A DNA stretch of 26,710 nucleotides from positions 1 through 26,710 of the forward strand of contig JAFEGS010000001.1 in assembly GCA_018239705.1 (NCBI GenBank), read 5' to 3'. Of this stretch, positions 2,639-20,606 are shown piece after piece. Made by a program: the position numbers and the translations under genes. How positions within the stretch are numbered: the first letter of the stretch is position 1; every line of letters begins with the position of its first letter. Origin of the DNA: Verrucomicrobiota bacterium. GTDB lineage: Bacteria > Chlamydiota > Chlamydiia > Chlamydiales > FEN-1388. Below the pieces are notes generated by a model. That model was not told the DNA's origin and did no database searches. It saw only the letters and a list, made by a program, of their open reading frames with translations.

Positions 2639-4897
2639 TTTCTTGAAGAATTCCTCGTGATTTCGTTTTGGGAACTCGATACCATACTGCAGGCTTCTCT
2701 GATAGGCTTCCAGTGTCTTTTGAATCACAAACTGTTCATAGCTGCATAGGTCTGCCTGTCTTGTGGCTCTATCGACGATAAAATCTACAATCAGGCAGTT
2801 AAGGGGCTCACTAGCTTGAAGAGAAAAACATTGGCATGGAAGCGTTTTGAAATGGTCGAGAAGATGATTAGAAGCCTCTCGCTGCTTGTCCCCCCCTCCC
2901 CATAGCGCATAAGAGAGTAGATGGAGCAGGACGGTGGTATGAGTATCTGGGTCCTGTACTCCGGAGGTGAACTTGGTCATAGCGACTTGAGTAGGTGCAG
3001 TAATAGAGCCACAGGCATAGAGGTTCGGATTCTCTTCAATTTTTCGTAGTTTGTCTGTAGCCATCTTGAGTATGGGAGAAGTTTCTTCCCACTTGGGTAT
3101 TGTAGCCGGGAATTGCTGCTCTATTTTGGCAAGCTGCACAATGCTTTTGGAATAGCACTGGATAAAGAGATTGTGGCAGCGGCTAGATTCACACACGTCA
3201 ATAAGCTCAAAAAGGGAGACGAGAGAGCTGAGGATGTCATTTCCGAATTGGCGCTGATAGGCACTATAGAGCTCTAAAAAAGAGGGTGTATTCTTACCTA
3301 CTGCATGTATATGGTCCATGTACTGTGCATTCTTACTCAGTGCGTACAGCGCCATATCGAGCTTAAGATACGAGCGGTTCTTTGAAAAATAGAACCATTC
3401 AGTAATCTCTCGTGTAAGGTATTGTATAATGCGGGTGAGGAGCAGGCTTTCGCTTAAACGTTCTATACTCTTTTTTCTATTGCCTTGTACAATAGCAAGC
3501 CATATCTCTTCATCTCTGTTGCACTGGGTAATTACTTGCAAACCAACTCGTGAGAGCAATGTCTCGAGGCTCTTGGTAATTTTGTGATTAAATTGTAGTA
3601 GCTGCTTGTCGTCTTCTACATAGAGTAGAAGTGCCTGTGAGACTGAATGAGCAGCACTGAAGAGGGCTTGGATTTTTTTTGAGGTGTTAATGCTATTGTG
3701 GGGAATAGAAAGAAAATCGCATGTATGCCTTATGGAGGCGATAGTTTTTTCATTTGCTGTGGATATATTGGCAAAAATGTGTGAGAGGTTGAATCGGATG
3801 TCCTGAATGAAGGCTGAAAGCCGAGCTGCGTAATTGAGCCCAGTACTTGTCTGCTGTGAATGCATGATTTGATAAAAGGCTGCTCGAATGTCTTCTAAAG
3901 CCTTTTCGATGATGGAGAGAGGTCCTTCGAAATAGGCACGAAAGAGATCTTCATTTTGTGTAATTTCTGCAAATTCCTTCCCTCGGTTTTCATATAGTCC
4001 TTGTAGGCAGTCCTGCACATCTTCATCGAGGATTTGAAGATCCATTGCCAGTTTTTTCATATAATTGATGAGTGGGGCGGTTAGCTCATTTCCCCAATTT
4101 ATTATAAAATATTCTGTAACGCTTGCGCCTGTTCCAGTGCGAAAGGCAAGATCCTCTCTCAGAGATGCATTGCTGTCCGTAGCTCGCTGTTTTCTCTTCG
4201 TAGTAATATCTGGAAGTGCATCCTGCCTTGTATAATTTCGTTCCTCTGTGCTTTTAATTTCATCCAATTTACTTATAACCAATTCATTATTGATATGTTC
4301 TTTGGCTAGTTTTTCCTCTTGATCGCACTGTTCCATTTGCTCATGAATGCGCTTTATATTCTCTTTCAGGTGAGGGTCTTCCAGAGTGTGGAGGAGCAGC
4401 TTTTGCTCTTTTAATGTAGCTTTAAAAGTGTCTGTTACACGTCCTTTTTTAGCCAGTTTATCATACTCTAAAACAGATACCTTATAGAGTATTACAGCCT
4501 GTGAATAGGCTGGACTATTAAGGAGTAGTGCGAGCTGTTCTACTTTGGTTTTTATCATTTGAAGTTTCAGGCTCAAGGGAAAAAGCTGCTGCATACTTGG
4601 GCAGAGAGCCTGCAGGGGCAAAAAGGGAAGCTGTTCATAGAGTTTGCACATGTCTAAGTTGCAAGTGGTTAAAGTCTCGATGGGTGCCGCAAGTTCAGTT
4701 TTCAGCTCCTCATGCCTTTCAAGTATTCTTTTGGATGGAGCTGCGAAGGAATAGATGCTTGCTGCAATTTCATTTATATTTTTTTCTACAGCTTCTATCA
4801 ACTGATTGATTTCGTTCAACTTATTGAAAAATATTTGTTCATCTGGTGTGTCTATATCTGTTTCATTTGTCAAAAAGTAGCGAGGAGTTATTTGCAT
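2618..4897 (-). CDS. Hypothetical large helical/coiled-coil protein (paralog 2 of tandem pair)
   Basis: 759-aa ORF alignable by eye to 4863..6590; no recognisable domain. Confidence 0.8.
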   Translation of the reverse strand: MQITPRYFLTNETDIDTPDEQIFFNKLNEINQLIEAVEKNINEIAASIYSFAAPSKRILERHEELKTELAAPIETLTTCNLDMCKLYEQLPFLPLQALCPSMQQLFPLSLKLQMIKTKVEQLALLLNSPAYSQAVILYKVSVLEYDKLAKKGRVTDTFKATLKEQKLLLHTLEDPHLKENIKRIHEQMEQCDQEEKLAKEHINNELVISKLDEIKSTEERNYTRQDALPDITTKRKQRATDSNASLREDLAFRTGTGASVTEYFIINWGNELTAPLINYMKKLAMDLQILDEDVQDCLQGLYENRGKEFAEITQNEDLFRAYFEGPLSIIEKALEDIRAAFYQIMHSQQTSTGLNYAARLSAFIQDIRFNLSHIFANISTANEKTIASIRHTCDFLSIPHNSINTSKKIQALFSAAHSVSQALLLYVEDDKQLLQFNHKITKSLETLLSRVGLQVITQCNRDEEIWLAIVQGNRKKSIERLSESLLLTRIIQYLTREITEWFYFSKNRSYLKLDMALYALSKNAQYMDHIHAVGKNTPSFLELYSAYQRQFGNDILSSLVSLFELIDVCESSRCHNLFIQCYSKSIVQLAKIEQQFPATIPKWEETSPILKMATDKLRKIEENPNLYACGSITAPTQVAMTKFTSGVQDPDTHTTVLLHLLSYALWGGGDKQREASNHLLDHFKTLPCQCFSLQASEPLNCLIVDFIVDRATRQADLCSYEQFVIQKTLEAYQRSLQYGIEFPKRNHEEFFKKLNNDTI

Positions 4898-9865: not shown

Positions 9866-9884
9866 TGTGAAAAAAGGGGGGATA

Positions 9885-11195
9885 ATGCGTAGAGATCACT
9901 TGAACTTTCTAAGGCAATGGAGAAATGACCCGATTAGGGTTCCTTTGATGATTCGCGGGGCGAGGCAGGTGGGTAAATCATGGCTCGTTACAGCCTTTGG
10001 GGAAGAGTTTGAACATTTTATATCAATCAATTTTGAAAAGGATAAGAGAGTCCACGCTCTATTTCCAGACCACATCGATATACATAAAACGCTTGAAACC
10101 TTGCGTGCCTATACCAAGATCCCTACTATTTCAGGAAAGACACTTCTTTTCTTAGATGAAATCCAAGAGTGCCCCAATGCGATACGGTACTTACGCTACT
10201 TCAAAGAGGAGCTTCCTGAACTTCATGTGATCGCTGCAGGATCGCTTTTGGAGTTTACATTAGAGAAATTGGGTGTTGCTGTAGGTAGGATCGATTATCT
10301 GTTTCTCTATCCTCTCTCTTTTATGGAATTTTTGACTGCTCTCAATCGAGATGATCTTCGAGAGGCCATTACAAACAAGAACATAGATGCTGCATCACAT
10401 GAGGTGCTTTTAGAGCATCTTAAAAACTATATGTGGCTTGGAGGAATGCCAGCGGTTGTTAGTACCTGGATCCAACATCGCGACTTTATCCTTTGTCAGC
10501 GTATCCAGGATCGCATTATTGGCAATTATGAGGATGATTTCCAAAAGTATGCCAAAAAACATCAGATCGAAACGTTAGGCAAGGTGTTTCGCTCGATTGG
10601 AAAGCAATTGGGAAAAAAATTTCAGTATATCAATGTTGACAATGACATGAAAACCTATCCCATCAAGCAGGGGCTCCATTTATTAATCAGAGCAGGTGTC
10701 GCTCATCTCTGTTACCATACCTCAGGGCATGTCTATCCTTTAGAGGCTGAAAGTAATGAGAAAAAGTTTAAAGTCTATCTCTTTGATATAGGTATTTCAC
10801 ATCGTCTCTTAGGATTAGATTTAGCCGAATGGGTCACCTCTCCGCTGCACATAGACTATTTAGGTGAAAGTGCTGAACAGCTCGTAGCCCAAGAGCTCAT
10901 TGCTTACGGCAACCCTTCAAAACGTGGTGAAATTTACTATTGGCACGTTGAGTCGAAATCAGGCAATGCAGAAGTAGATTTTATTGATGTTAAGGAAAAT
11001 AAGATTGTGCCAATTGAAGTGAAATCTGGAGTCAAAGGTGGGATGAAAAGCCTAAATGTATTTTTTGAAACGCATCCCAAGGCGACCTATGGCGTGAAAA
11101 TTTCTGAAATGCCATTTTCCCGTCATGGTAATTTGGAAGAAATTCCCTTGTATGCAGTAGCCAGTTGGAAAAAAAACCAAAGCTCAGGTTATTAA
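9885..11195 (+). CDS. ATP-binding protein, AAA_14 plus DUF4143-like C-terminal domain
   Basis: Walker A GARQVGKS, Walker B LFLDEIQ, IAAGSLL, YMWLGGMPAVV and C-terminal EVDF...IVPIEVKSG (PD-(D/E)XK-like). ATG 9885 preferred over the track start at 9867. Confidence 0.9.
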   Translation: MRRDHLNFLRQWRNDPIRVPLMIRGARQVGKSWLVTAFGEEFEHFISINFEKDKRVHALFPDHIDIHKTLETLRAYTKIPTISGKTLLFLDEIQECPNAIRYLRYFKEELPELHVIAAGSLLEFTLEKLGVAVGRIDYLFLYPLSFMEFLTALNRDDLREAITNKNIDAASHEVLLEHLKNYMWLGGMPAVVSTWIQHRDFILCQRIQDRIIGNYEDDFQKYAKKHQIETLGKVFRSIGKQLGKKFQYINVDNDMKTYPIKQGLHLLIRAGVAHLCYHTSGHVYPLEAESNEKKFKVYLFDIGISHRLLGLDLAEWVTSPLHIDYLGESAEQLVAQELIAYGNPSKRGEIYYWHVESKSGNAEVDFIDVKENKIVPIEVKSGVKGGMKSLNVFFETHPKATYGVKISEMPFSRHGNLEEIPLYAVASWKKNQSSGY

Positions 11196-17163: not shown

Positions 17164-17448
17164 ATGCGCTGCACGTTTGTATGCAACATAGTCATCAAAG
17201 TCGAGAGTGTGGTGCATGTCTATCAAGGCAAAACACGAGGGACCATTGTTTCACCCAGGGGAGACTGTTTTGGTTTTGGCAAGTACTTTTTGCTTGATGG
17301 GACAGACAAGACGCTCGGTGAATACATGGATCCAGAGTATAACGCTCGATCGCTTGCTATTCGAAATTTCAAAGAAAAGAAGCCATTTACCACACTGCCT
17401 ATGTTAGCAGTGTGGAATGGTGCGTTTCAGCGGAAGGATTTTGTTTAA
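17164..17448 (+). CDS. Doubtful short ORF or decayed gene remnant
   Basis: 94-aa ORF filling the gap; no SD and no recognisable motif. Confidence 0.25.
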   Translation: MRCTFVCNIVIKVESVVHVYQGKTRGTIVSPRGDCFGFGKYFLLDGTDKTLGEYMDPEYNARSLAIRNFKEKKPFTTLPMLAVWNGAFQRKDFV

Positions 17449-17510: not shown

Positions 17511-18968
17511 TTAACAAAATAAATCCTCCAGCACTAGTTCATTATGAATAAGCTCGGTTGAATATTCGTTTTTTTGCAGGCCAAAAGGCGTAATGAACGT
17601 TATAAAGATGGTTTTTGTGGTTTTGGTCACTTCCCGAAAAACTCTAATCTTTGCTTCTATTTCTTTTGCATAGCTCTTTGTAATAGCAAACAAACTATTA
17701 CAAAATTTTATCTCGAATATATTAATGCAATCATCTTTTCTATCAAGAAGTAAATCTATTTGCACACCAATTTCTGATTTATCCTTAGGTTTATAGGCCC
17801 ATTGAGATTCCGTTGTAAGTAATGCAGAAATTCCTAGTGCTTTTTTAATCTGTGGGATATGTTTGAAACAGAGGCTTTCAAAAGCGTATCCAGCCCATGT
17901 TTTCCAGCGTGGTTCGCTTTGCATCTTTAACCAGTACTCGCTGTCATGTCCCATGAGTACACCAGATTTTACTTCTTCAATCCATGAGAGATAAAAATAA
18001 GAATATTCATCCACCAGCCACAGGCGCTTGTTCTTTGCCTTCTTCTGAAATTCAGGATTTATAGCAATAAATCCAGACTCTTCAAGTTCTTCTAATATGG
18101 CTGTAGATTGCCCGCCAGTTGGCATATTGAGCTTTTCATAGAGCTCAAGTTTTGAAACCCCTCCCTTCTTTGCTGCGAGAGCTCTCACGATTTCTATATG
18201 TTTTGAGGGGGAGTCGAATAGAGAGTAATATAAATTAGTAAACTCAGGGACCAAGGGGCCTTGCGAAATAAAACAGAGTCGATTAATGCTTTGGGCTGCC
18301 GATTCTCCAGGGTGCACGTAGGTTAAATACTTAGCAACTCCTCCAAAACACATATAAAGCTCTGCAACCAGCTTATGAGAAAGGGTAACTCCTTGTGATT
18401 GGAGAAATTTCATTGATTCGTCTAGTGTGAATGCATTGAGCTTTATAACTTCTGTTAATCTCCCATATAGGCCACCTTTATTATTGATGATCTTCTTAAT
18501 AATCCAATTTGCGGCAGATCCGCAAACAATTAAAATAACATTGCGAGCTTGAGATAGGTACTGATTCCAAAAATATTCTAACGCTTCTAGAAAGCCTGAA
18601 CATTTTGAAGCAAGCCAGGGAAGTTCATCAAAGAATAAAATTACTTTCTTTGATGGATCGATTTTGCCTACTGCTTCCTGCAGCGTAAAGAGTGCATCGT
18701 CCCAGCTTGTGGGCGGTTTTTCAGTATGAGATATTTCAAATTTTTGCTTTAGCACACGATAAAATTTCTGAATTTGAGAGCGCTTTGTGCCATTTCTTGT
18801 GCCAGTAAAAGAGAAAAAGGTTCCCTTGTCTTTAAAGAACTCTTGAATAAGGTAGGTCTTGCCTACTCGACGCCTGCCATAAATAGCCAGAAATTCGGGA
18901 TTTTCAGACCTAAGGAGTCTCTGAAGCTTTTCTATCTCCCGTTCTCTTCCAAATATTCGAGCTACCAT
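17511..18968 (-). CDS. ATP-binding protein: archaeal-type ATPase, winged helix and C-terminal PD-(D/E)XK-like (DUF234-like) domain
   Basis: IFGREREI, Walker A GRRRVGKT, Walker B LFFDELPW, CGS; central IVRALA...LYEKL...AILEELEESGFI (wHTH-like); GYAFE..C and QIDLLLD...IFEIKF. Confidence 0.9.
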   Translation of the reverse strand: MVARIFGREREIEKLQRLLRSENPEFLAIYGRRRVGKTYLIQEFFKDKGTFFSFTGTRNGTKRSQIQKFYRVLKQKFEISHTEKPPTSWDDALFTLQEAVGKIDPSKKVILFFDELPWLASKCSGFLEALEYFWNQYLSQARNVILIVCGSAANWIIKKIINNKGGLYGRLTEVIKLNAFTLDESMKFLQSQGVTLSHKLVAELYMCFGGVAKYLTYVHPGESAAQSINRLCFISQGPLVPEFTNLYYSLFDSPSKHIEIVRALAAKKGGVSKLELYEKLNMPTGGQSTAILEELEESGFIAINPEFQKKAKNKRLWLVDEYSYFYLSWIEEVKSGVLMGHDSEYWLKMQSEPRWKTWAGYAFESLCFKHIPQIKKALGISALLTTESQWAYKPKDKSEIGVQIDLLLDRKDDCINIFEIKFCNSLFAITKSYAKEIEAKIRVFREVTKTTKTIFITFITPFGLQKNEYSTELIHNELVLEDLFC

Positions 18969-18986
18969 AGCCCTACCCTCTTTTTA

Positions 18987-19084
18987 GAGTTTTAGCCAAA
19001 TCTCATAAAATAAGACACATTCGGCTAAAACTCTTAAGACTTTCAGCCGAATCTTCCATTTTAACCGAGATTCGGCTAAATCTC
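18987..19084. repeat. Array R1: two 15-17-15 inverted-repeat units with a 51-bp period, 19 nt upstream of the ATPase start
   Basis: Half-site consensus GAGTTTTAGCCGAAT: forward at 18987 and 19038, reverse at 19019 and 19070. Confidence 0.9.
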
Positions 19085-19308
19085 AAGCGATTTTTATCGT
19101 TCCAGAGAGTTGGTACATGAGTTCATCGAGGCTTACAAAGGAAACAGAGACTCCATCATATTCTCTACTCTTTCGATCCAGTACTTTCTCTTAATCAGAT
19201 GCTGCTGCATGACAACTCCAGTTTCGTTTAGTAGCACTAAGCGAAACTGTACCTTGCAAATAGTTAAGAGGAGATTGCTTAAAGGCTAAAATGAATCCTC
19301 AGCAACCC

Positions 19309-19385
19309 GAGTTTTAGCCGAATCTCATAAAACAAGACACATTCGGCTAAAACTCTCATGAGTTTCAGCCGAATCTACAATTTTA
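19309..19385. repeat. Array R2: direct copy of 18987..19063
   Basis: 70/77 nt identical by manual alignment; perfect 15-bp inverted repeat at 19309-19323 and 19341-19355, third half-site at 19360. Confidence 0.92.
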
Positions 19386-19564
19386 CGGCTCTCTCGTTTG
19401 CGTACTTCTGTCAATAATCGAATCTCCGAGCCATCGGGTGCAAGATAGTGGTAGGAAATGGGAATATCTCCCTCGCGATACGATTGGGGGATGTGCTCTT
19501 CGGTATGCCCAAAGATAAGGGGTAAGGAGAGGGCTAAACTCGCAAAAAATATTTTCCAATACAT
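19325..19564 (-). pseudogene. 3'-truncated cupin-domain gene with signal peptide, interrupted at array R2
   Basis: YLAPDGSEIRLL matches the N-terminal motif I recall for a small cupin family. The expected His/Glu cupin motifs are absent, and the last about 20 codons are read through R2. Confidence 0.6.
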
Positions 19565-19583
19565 AGAACATCCCCTTAAGTTC

Positions 19584-20606
19584 CTAGTGCAAATTCACAC
19601 AATCAGCAATCACTGGCATGTGGTCAGAAGCAAAAAAGCCATCCACTAAGGCTGGCTGCACGGCATGTAAGAGCACAATCATGTTTCCACCCGCAAAAAT
19701 ATGATCGAGAAAAACGCCTGGGGTGCCTTTACCTTGAAAGGGCAAGAGCGACCCCTCTTTATTGGTATAGGTGGCAAGTGGCCCAAGGGTGCCAATCAGC
19801 GCGGTGTCTCGCGAATTTCTCAAATTTTTACTTGTCAATATCTTGAGAATGTAGTTTCCGTCGTAATAGGGAAGGAAAGAATCGTCTACTCGAGGCATGA
19901 AGGTATTGAAATCGCCGGCCACTAAGCAGGCCTTCTGCTCACAGATGGGCTCGACATGGCCAACAAGAAAGCGCGCCATATATTCACGGGCATCGGGGGA
20001 GCCAAAAGGGGCATGTACGCTGAGGACAGCGAACTCTTTTCCCGTGATCTTATCAAACAGGTGCACTTCAGTAAAGGTCTGTGCTTCGGGGCCCAGTATC
20101 TCCTCAGCATCGCGGATGGTGCAGGCCTGAGCCTCCTTACATGTAAAACGAGATTTGCGGTAGAAGACCCCATGGACTTCATCTGGGTCCTTCTCCTCTT
20201 CTTCTGGAAGGTTGCCGATGAACTCATATTCCTTGCCTACCTGTTCAAGCAGGTCTGTCACCTGCTTTGGATAGAGCTGTTGAGAGCAGATGATATCGGC
20301 ATTCATCTCTTTAAGGAGCTGGACGATTCTCGGCAGGCGCTCTTTCCAGCGTAGATGTGAGGGCAGTATCTCATCGTATCTATTGAACAGCATCTGGTAG
20401 CTCACCACTCGTATGATGCTCCCTTTATGCGATAGGGCGTCGGTGATGGCTTTGTGCTGGTTTTTTGAATATTTCTTTGTCTCAATATTGGCGATAGCGT
20501 GGTAGTGATCCAAGAGAGGGGTAATGGACTCCTCTACTTTAGCAAGGAGGAGCGATGGCATCCAAAGGCTTACCAGAAGTAGAAACAACTTAATAGATAT
20601 ATTCAT
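19584..20606 (-). CDS. Secreted endonuclease/exonuclease/phosphatase (EEP) family protein
   Basis: Signal-peptide-like N-terminus; motifs SVHAPF, AGDFN, LDHIF and SDHMPV. Confidence 0.88.
   Translation of the reverse strand: MNISIKLFLLLVSLWMPSLLLAKVEESITPLLDHYHAIANIETKKYSKNQHKAITDALSHKGSIIRVVSYQMLFNRYDEILPSHLRWKERLPRIVQLLKEMNADIICSQQLYPKQVTDLLEQVGKEYEFIGNLPEEEEKDPDEVHGVFYRKSRFTCKEAQACTIRDAEEILGPEAQTFTEVHLFDKITGKEFAVLSVHAPFGSPDAREYMARFLVGHVEPICEQKACLVAGDFNTFMPRVDDSFLPYYDGNYILKILTSKNLRNSRDTALIGTLGPLATYTNKEGSLLPFQGKGTPGVFLDHIFAGGNMIVLLHAVQPALVDGFFASDHMPVIADCVNLH

Follow-up and report, generated by a model that had tools for sequence, protein, structure and literature searches.

An array of four alternating half-sites stands directly in front of a gene of the PDC-S27 family of ATPase-nuclease proteins and is probably (a probability of about 0.75) the cognate autoregulatory operator of that gene, with which a candidate promoter overlaps. 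The assignment draws on sequence comparison: symmetric repeats lie over a promoter candidate recognized by consensus match, the sites are specific to their locus, and within the family a base of the half-site tracks a residue of the encoded protein. The same design, in which each gene carries a private array, most likely recurs before nearly every gene of the family. The array lies in a 26,710-nucleotide stretch of a chlamydial genome; this whole stretch is called the window below. The initial annotation had described a multi-subsite protein-binding region, either an operator or a res-like recombination site. The private arrays, the overlap with the predicted promoter and the covariation with the protein favor the operator, and the res-like alternative is left doubtful at best. 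The features of the locus, with positions in the window, are as follows.

17511 to 18968, minus strand: PDC-S27 gene, encoding a protein of 485 aa
18969 to 18986, minus strand: leader between array and ATG; a Shine-Dalgarno-like AGAGGG precedes the start codon by 7 nt
18987 to 19001: half-site 1 (gene-proximal), GAGTTTTAGCCAAAT, plus as a 15-mer and listed as a minus-strand feature; ATTTGGCTAAAACTC on the gene's strand
19019 to 19033: half-site 2, GAGTTTTAGCCGAAT, minus as a 15-mer and listed as a plus-strand feature; exact consensus in the opposite orientation
19038 to 19052: half-site 3, GACTTTCAGCCGAAT, plus as a 15-mer and listed as a minus-strand feature; 2 mismatches
19070 to 19084: half-site 4 (gene-distal), GAGATTTAGCCGAAT, minus as a 15-mer and listed as a plus-strand feature; 1 mismatch
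19058 to 19086, minus strand: candidate sigma-70-like promoter, TTGAGA (19086 to 19081), 17 nt, TAAAAT (19063 to 19058), with 10 of 12 consensus matches
19085 to 19308: stretch of 224 nt between the two arrays, holding broken reading frames only
19309 to 19385: second copy of the array (copy B), 91% identical to the first over 77 nt and 322 bp further upstream

The PDC-S27 gene and its product

The product of the gene matches the PADLOC PDC-S27 profile PDLC04984 over nearly its whole length (E-value 4.1e-178, residues 4 to 484 on positions 3 to 473 of 474), and by this full-length match the gene is a candidate anti-phage gene of the PDC-S27 family. By prevalence, PDC-S27 is reported to rank in the top ten of prokaryotic defence systems and candidates; one survey counted 3503 archaeal and 4562 bacterial instances, and validation is pending for most PDC candidates (PMC12988326). 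The DUF234 domain has been classed as a PD-(D/E)XK domain fused to an AAA+ ATPase (PMC3424549). Both papers describe domain make-up and distribution and mention no promoter-proximal or upstream repeat array; likewise, no published description of the arrays was found in the literature on DUF234, PDC-S27, PF01637 and COG1672 or in the PADLOC preprint.

An ATPase_2 domain (PF01637) covers residues 6 to 217 with 69.9 bits against a Pfam cut-off of 33.2, and the match to DUF234 (PF03008) is weak, with 17.0 bits against a cut-off of 22.5. No NCBIfam family scored above its cut-off for the product. The Walker A motif GRRRVGKT is invariant among the paralogs in the same genome, as are, in 13 of them, D405 and E419 of the nuclease motif D405 plus E419-x-K421, which here reads E419-I-K421. 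An AlphaFold2 model of the 485-residue protein (mean pLDDT 86, pTM 0.85) consists of a P-loop ATPase, a winged helix and a C-terminal alpha/beta domain that bears D405 and E419-x-K421; the fold of this candidate DUF234 domain is modelled with confidence. The predicted winged helix spans roughly residues 254 to 318, with helices at 254 to 266, 273 to 280 and 286 to 297, the last being the predicted recognition helix, followed by a beta-hairpin wing at 301 to 318 with a strongly basic loop. Among solved structures, the archaeal family members 2qen and 2fna come nearest, then CED-4, DNA-bound Orc1/Cdc6, plant NLRs and MalT. The identification of the downstream gene as an ATPase with a winged helix and a nuclease, already made in the initial annotation, agrees with the ATPase_2 match, the weak DUF234 match and the predicted winged helix.

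The family is patchily distributed in environmental chlamydiae and strongly expanded in some of them. Copies are present in 24 of the 61 genomes searched and were not found in the other 37 relatives; five of the carriers hold 18 (genome G006), 9, 8, 8 and 8 copies. The PDC-S27 profile also matches four archaeal control genomes. The genome studied here encodes about 24 PDC-S27 paralogs (at least 21 to 24), many of them at contig ends. A further accessory ATPase gene in the window, at 9867 to 11195 on the plus strand, combines AAA_14 with DUF4143 and is a full-length PADLOC PDC-S01 candidate (E-value 1e-131).

A four-site array confined to one intergenic region

The four 15-nt half-sites before the minus-strand ORF 17511 to 18968 are separated by spacers of 17, 4 and 17 nt; paired half-sites start 32 bp apart, the unit period is 51 bp, and the array ends 18 nt from the ATG. 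All four lie where the initial annotation had placed them, at the same spacings and the same distance from the start codon. On the strand of the gene, half-site 1 (ATTTGGCTAAAACTC) is close to the family core TTTGGC that is described below.

When up to three mismatches are allowed, the window contains 8 matches to the 15-mer where 1.01 would be expected, a count that no shuffled sequence out of 100 reached. In the whole 2.4-Mb assembly (652 contigs, 86% complete), every match with no or one mismatch falls within the intergenic region of the array, and three of these matches are half-sites of copy B. Elsewhere in the genome, a backwards control pattern yields two-mismatch matches at least as often as the 15-mer does. 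The genome-wide search that had been proposed as a check thus finds the 15-mer confined rather than scattered. One two-mismatch copy at 10816 to 10830, inside the PDC-S01 gene, looks like a chance occurrence.

A search with positions 18969 to 19420 against 60 related genomes returned no DNA match, so the sequence of the putative operator is not conserved at the DNA level between genera. The exact 15-17-15 pattern likewise had 0 matches in a metagenome scan. A relaxed scan of metagenomes with a ten-base palindrome yielded at least 120 loci, 27 of them with a PDC-S27 family gene. In 21 of the 27 the gene was found by tblastn, and in 19 of these 21 the palindrome stood 0 to 200 nt upstream of the start. 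Some 93 metagenome loci (among L145 to L264) carry the palindrome TTAGCCRAAT-N16-18-ATTYGGCTAA without a family gene, and the ten-base palindrome alone is therefore not diagnostic. The loci without the gene are mostly intergenic clusters of the word (A)TTCGGCTGA from a few metagenome series, for example L156:4070-4200, and these clusters have no flanking gene in common.

Private arrays before the paralogs

Sixteen of the paralogs in the genome have an intact 5' end. Arrays were scored as the most non-overlapping sites of any 10-mer, with at most one mismatch and both strands required, within 130 nt upstream of the gene. By this score 15 of the 16 paralogs have at least three sites upstream, against 16 of 1500 random genomic windows. 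Nearly all of the 16 carry their own inverted repeats within about 100 nt of the start, each of a different sequence. In a cross-matrix of the paralog motifs, 59 matches fall on the motif's own upstream region and 9 are spread over the 240 cross-combinations; the array motifs are private to their loci.

A shared geometry in other phyla

Beyond the genome, 80 homolog loci were examined, with one genome taken per species; their proteins are 41 to 50% identical and come from Bacteroidota, Chlamydiota, Verrucomicrobiota, Planctomycetota and other phyla. Three or more upstream sites occur in 58 of the 80; of the control windows, none of the 80 placed in the coding sequence and 1 of the 76 placed at -700 reach that number. 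The 22 other homologs fall below three sites under the strict 10-mer criterion. The 160 nt that precede the start hold 23 cognate sites per kb and the remainder of the loci 0.32 per kb, a 72-fold difference. The comparison of upstream regions of homologs, another check that the initial annotation had suggested, finds private arrays of the same geometry before 15 of 16 paralogs and 58 of 80 homologs.

Once registered, the half-sites share a 17-nt profile with the consensus gTTTTGGC-nnn-aTATAA. Across the 70 loci in which geometry was measured, the median period is 54 bp (interquartile range 52 to 54), 25 bp separate convergent cores and 29 bp divergent ones, and 44 loci have exactly four sites. 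The last core stands a median of 29 nt from the ATG. The window array follows this plan with a period of 51 bp, a last-core distance of 28 nt and, in the family register, core distances of 28, 23 and 28 bp. Its half-site then reads ATT(C/T)GGCTAAAACTC on the strand of the gene. The orientation that reads ATTCGGCT was adopted, as it alone gives the core distances of the family (28, 23) and matches the closest homologs, L121 and L041. The orientation that reads GTTTTAGCC, chosen by the profile, was rejected; its core distances would be 21 and 30.

This register bears on the 15-17-15 pairing proposed at the outset. The 17-nt spacing is common to the window array and its closest homologs, L121 and L041, and in the family register the pairs so defined are the divergent pairs. 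The central pair, with its 4-nt gap, corresponds to the conserved convergent dyad of the family.

The arrays vary in extent and, at times, in placement. Sites are confined to the 5' side in about 90% of homolog loci, and in about 6 of the 58 loci with arrays the cognate array recurs just beyond the stop codon. In L108, L089, L044, L042 and L041 a cognate pair lies 0 to 250 nt past the stop. In L111 the array belongs to a direct repeat of 306 bp that flanks the gene (1129 to 1434 and 2931 to 3220, 88% identical) and begins 3 nt beyond the stop. Upstream of the L042 gene stand at least nine palindrome pairs, spaced at a period of about 151 bp, and L040 has six half-sites.

Covariation of the half-site with the winged helix

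The 17 half-site positions were compared with all columns of the protein alignment by mutual information with average-product correction. Among 59 loci, the top pair joined half-site position 9, the base after GGC, to residue 287, and the third joined position 6 to residue 284. With 70 loci, position 9 and residue 287 lead 3091 scored pairs with a z-score of 8.5, the next pair reaching 4.5, and the winged-helix residues 273, 284 and 290 are also in the top ten. Residue 287 lies in the first turn of the predicted recognition helix.

The correspondence can be read residue by residue. Residue 287 is T or S in 27 of 27 loci with GGC-T and mostly R in those with GGC-C; G, Y or F accompany GGC-G and GGC-A. 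When the winged-helix columns are left out of the tree, eight phylogenetically independent pairs of loci differ in the base, of which 7 to 8 are concordant and none discordant (median sign-test p 0.016). The subclade of the window gene, which includes L119 and L121, is an exception when its half-sites are oriented by geometry, with Q or G at residue 287 and T at position 9. At the level of the family, the sequence of the half-site thus tracks the residues that, by the predicted fold, would read the DNA.

Candidate promoter and leader

The only good sigma-70-like candidate on the strand of the gene is TTGAGA-17-TAAAAT. Its -35 hexamer overlaps half-site 4 and its -10 hexamer falls in the spacer of the distal pair. 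Transcription is predicted to start at about 19051, inside half-site 3, which would give a leader of 83 nt holding the proximal pair. Among homologs outside the Bacteroidota, a promoter-like site occurs in 18 of 33 loci and its -10 lies within the span of the array in 18 of 18, a coincidence that is weak evidence because arrays fill most of the upstream 160 nt.

In Bacteroidota loci (such as L107, L109 and L115, in the 130 nt before the start), the forward half-site takes the form TAnnTTTGGCG. Loci such as these also have a decayed fifth half-site of the same form about 25 to 30 nt before the ATG. The half-site contains TAnnTTTG, the Bacteroidota -7 promoter box, and in these bacteria a single sequence may serve both as operator and as promoter element.

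A second copy of the array and its surroundings

Copy B went unmentioned in the initial annotation. It retains three good half-sites, at 19309, 19341 and 19360, and its fourth has decayed after a 9-nt deletion. A promoter scan found no -35 hexamer in it, and a pattern scan rated its palindrome terminator-like. Similarity between the two copies sets in precisely at the edge of the array that faces the gene. Neither the 224 nt between the arrays nor the broken frame upstream had a homolog by blastn or tblastx in the genome and the fetched loci.

The ATPase gene is flanked by a Ham1-like C-terminal fragment on one side and, on the other, by the broken upstream frame that enters copy B. The fragment is an ORF of 94 aa (17164 to 17448, plus strand) whose match to Ham1/ITPase is confined to the C-terminal part (profile positions 110 to 183 of 186); this apparently truncated gene lies immediately downstream of the ATPase gene and is convergent with it. 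An upstream frame (19325 to 19594, minus strand) is open for 89 codons, has a signal-peptide-like start, runs into copy B and ends there. It looks like a gene truncated by an insertion, and one stretch of its translation is reminiscent of a cupin.

Proposed mechanism and alternative explanations

In the proposed mechanism, the PDC-S27 protein, an AAA+/STAND-like ATPase with a winged helix and a PD-(D/E)XK nuclease, would bind the array through its winged helix. Four winged helices would occupy the four alternating half-sites of 15 to 17 bp, and the subunits would follow one another along a single face of the DNA in a chain of two-fold-related contacts; at about five helical turns, the 51-bp period would place all four subunits there. 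The distal pair would cover the -35 and -10 hexamers, and the proximal pair would fall within the predicted 83-nt leader, shortly ahead of the ribosome-binding site. A filled array would then block initiation and also act as a roadblock, the effect being probably repression rather than activation. A potentially toxic nuclease would thereby be held at a low, self-limited level. Copy B is superfluous to a pure operator, as are the arrays found past the stop codon in about 6 of the 58 loci. Being long repeats, the arrays would now and then be substrates of recombination, and occasional recombination between them would account for both.

A more active part in mobility is quite unlikely. The arrays would then be res-like sites or cassette ends that move a single-gene cassette or resolve its copies. 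Such a role would suit copy B, which lies 322 bp upstream with a similarity that begins exactly at the gene-proximal edge of the array, the position of the gene between a truncated Ham1-like ORF and a broken upstream frame, the direct repeat of 306 bp that includes the array and flanks the gene in L111, the cognate pairs 0 to 250 nt after the stop in L108, L089, L044, L042 and L041, and the PD-(D/E)XK nuclease of the protein itself. However, ordinary homologous recombination between long repeats can also yield flanking repeats, the 3' end of the gene lacks a cognate site in the window, and the sites of about 90% of homolog loci are restricted to the 5' side. A Pfam scan of the gene and the surrounding ORFs of the window detected no serine or tyrosine recombinase or transposase domain. 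The subsites are equal and regularly spaced, their position relative to the start codon is fixed, and their sequences differ between paralogs, unlike the ends of a spreading element. An account in which the palindromes act as RNA hairpins in the 5' leader, affecting translation, stability or termination, is highly improbable. The proximal pair does lie within the predicted 83-nt leader, where it would fold a 15-bp stem, and the palindrome of copy B scored as terminator-like. Against this, arm mismatches in 58 loci show no wobble bias (93 G.T against 106 A.C, p 0.40), conservation is poor in the loops of 13 to 20 nt, the Shine-Dalgarno sequence falls beyond the stem and the distal half-site precedes the predicted start. 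That one sequence recurs in all four half-sites of a locus is something two separate hairpins would not require, and a structure in RNA does not fit a DNA base that covaries with a protein residue. The Rfam matches, hairpin-like, are far below threshold, at 17 to 25 bits against gathering scores of 60 to 230.

The remaining alternative accepts binding by the protein and differs in its purpose. The sites could serve mainly as a platform on which the effector is loaded or parked, control of its own transcription being secondary: an ATP-dependent oligomer would assemble on its private home DNA, in the way of Orc1/Cdc6 on origin boxes or a STAND protein on a scaffold, and infection would release or activate it. 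By fold the protein is nearest to 2qen and 2fna and then to CED-4, DNA-bound Orc1/Cdc6, NLRs and MalT, and four phased sites with a period of five helical turns would suit a higher-order assembly. Some loci hold more units than a promoter needs, with six half-sites in L040 and at least nine pairs in L042, and copy B, which has no promoter, has nevertheless kept three near-perfect half-sites. Yet the last core stands at a tightly fixed distance from the ATG, which an operator needs and a mere parking site does not, and the overlap of the array with promoter-like sites is likewise a need of an operator only. This makes a primary role as a platform unlikely, and the autoregulatory operator is retained as the preferred reading.

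A broader version of the operator reading is put forward as speculation. The roughly 24 PDC-S27 proteins of this 2.4-Mb chlamydial genome and their operators could form mutually insulated pairs that obey a simple code, in which the first residue of the recognition helix sets the base after GGC. The array could in addition be a home site that keeps an ATP-dependent nuclease oligomer inactive until infection, and so be part of an immune switch beyond a repressor site.

The autoregulatory operator has practical consequences of its own. A private four-site operator for each gene would supply each protein with a defined DNA ligand, and the covariation of residue and base amounts to a testable specificity rule. 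With private operators, the coexistence of dozens of paralogous nuclease genes in a small genome, free of cross-regulation, would also be accounted for. Finally, the repeats mark the borders of cassettes and may help to explain how PDC-S27 genes are gained, lost and stacked.

Comparison with known systems

The present gene is a full-length member of PDC-S27, the family that combines ATPase_2 (PF01637) with DUF234 (PF03008) and corresponds to COG1672. The arrangement of its array invites comparison with the res sites of serine resolvases (Tn3/gamma-delta), in which several dyad subsites lie within about 100 bp beside the gene of the protein that binds them. The res site has three subsites with unequal spacing, is bound by a serine recombinase and, in Tn3, doubles as the operator of tnpR. 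The array resembles res in having several dyad subsites within about 100 bp next to the gene of its presumed binder. In contrast to res, its four half-sites are equal and regularly spaced, the protein has no recombinase fold, and the window holds no second site at the other end of the gene.

Binding sites before the gene of an initiator are also familiar from replication, where DnaA boxes stand before dnaA. Archaeal Orc1/Cdc6 (PDB 2qby, 2v1u) is an AAA+ ATPase with a C-terminal winged helix and a fold similar to that predicted here, and its origin boxes are repeated, oppositely oriented and adjoin its own gene. Unlike Orc1/Cdc6, PDC-S27 occurs in about 24 copies per genome with private sites and has an additional nuclease domain, and its loci give no sign of an unwinding element or a replicon. 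The likeness is best considered an analogy of DNA recognition and not one of family membership.

Autoregulation of this kind is known from defence and toxin genes, and no published description of winged-helix autoregulation was found for the PDC-S27 family. The winged-helix antitoxin AbiEi binds inverted repeats in the abiE promoter (PMC7319586, PMC3985639), and BrxR-type regulators adjoin defence systems (PMC9122601). The PDC-S27 locus shares with these a locus-encoded winged helix, several inverted repeats over its own candidate promoter and a negative self-control that is probable here. It departs from them in that the DNA-binding domain is internal to the ATPase-nuclease, a single gene with no separate regulator, and in that the array consists of four alternating half-sites at fixed distances of 25 and 29 bp (23 and 28 bp here), private to each paralog.
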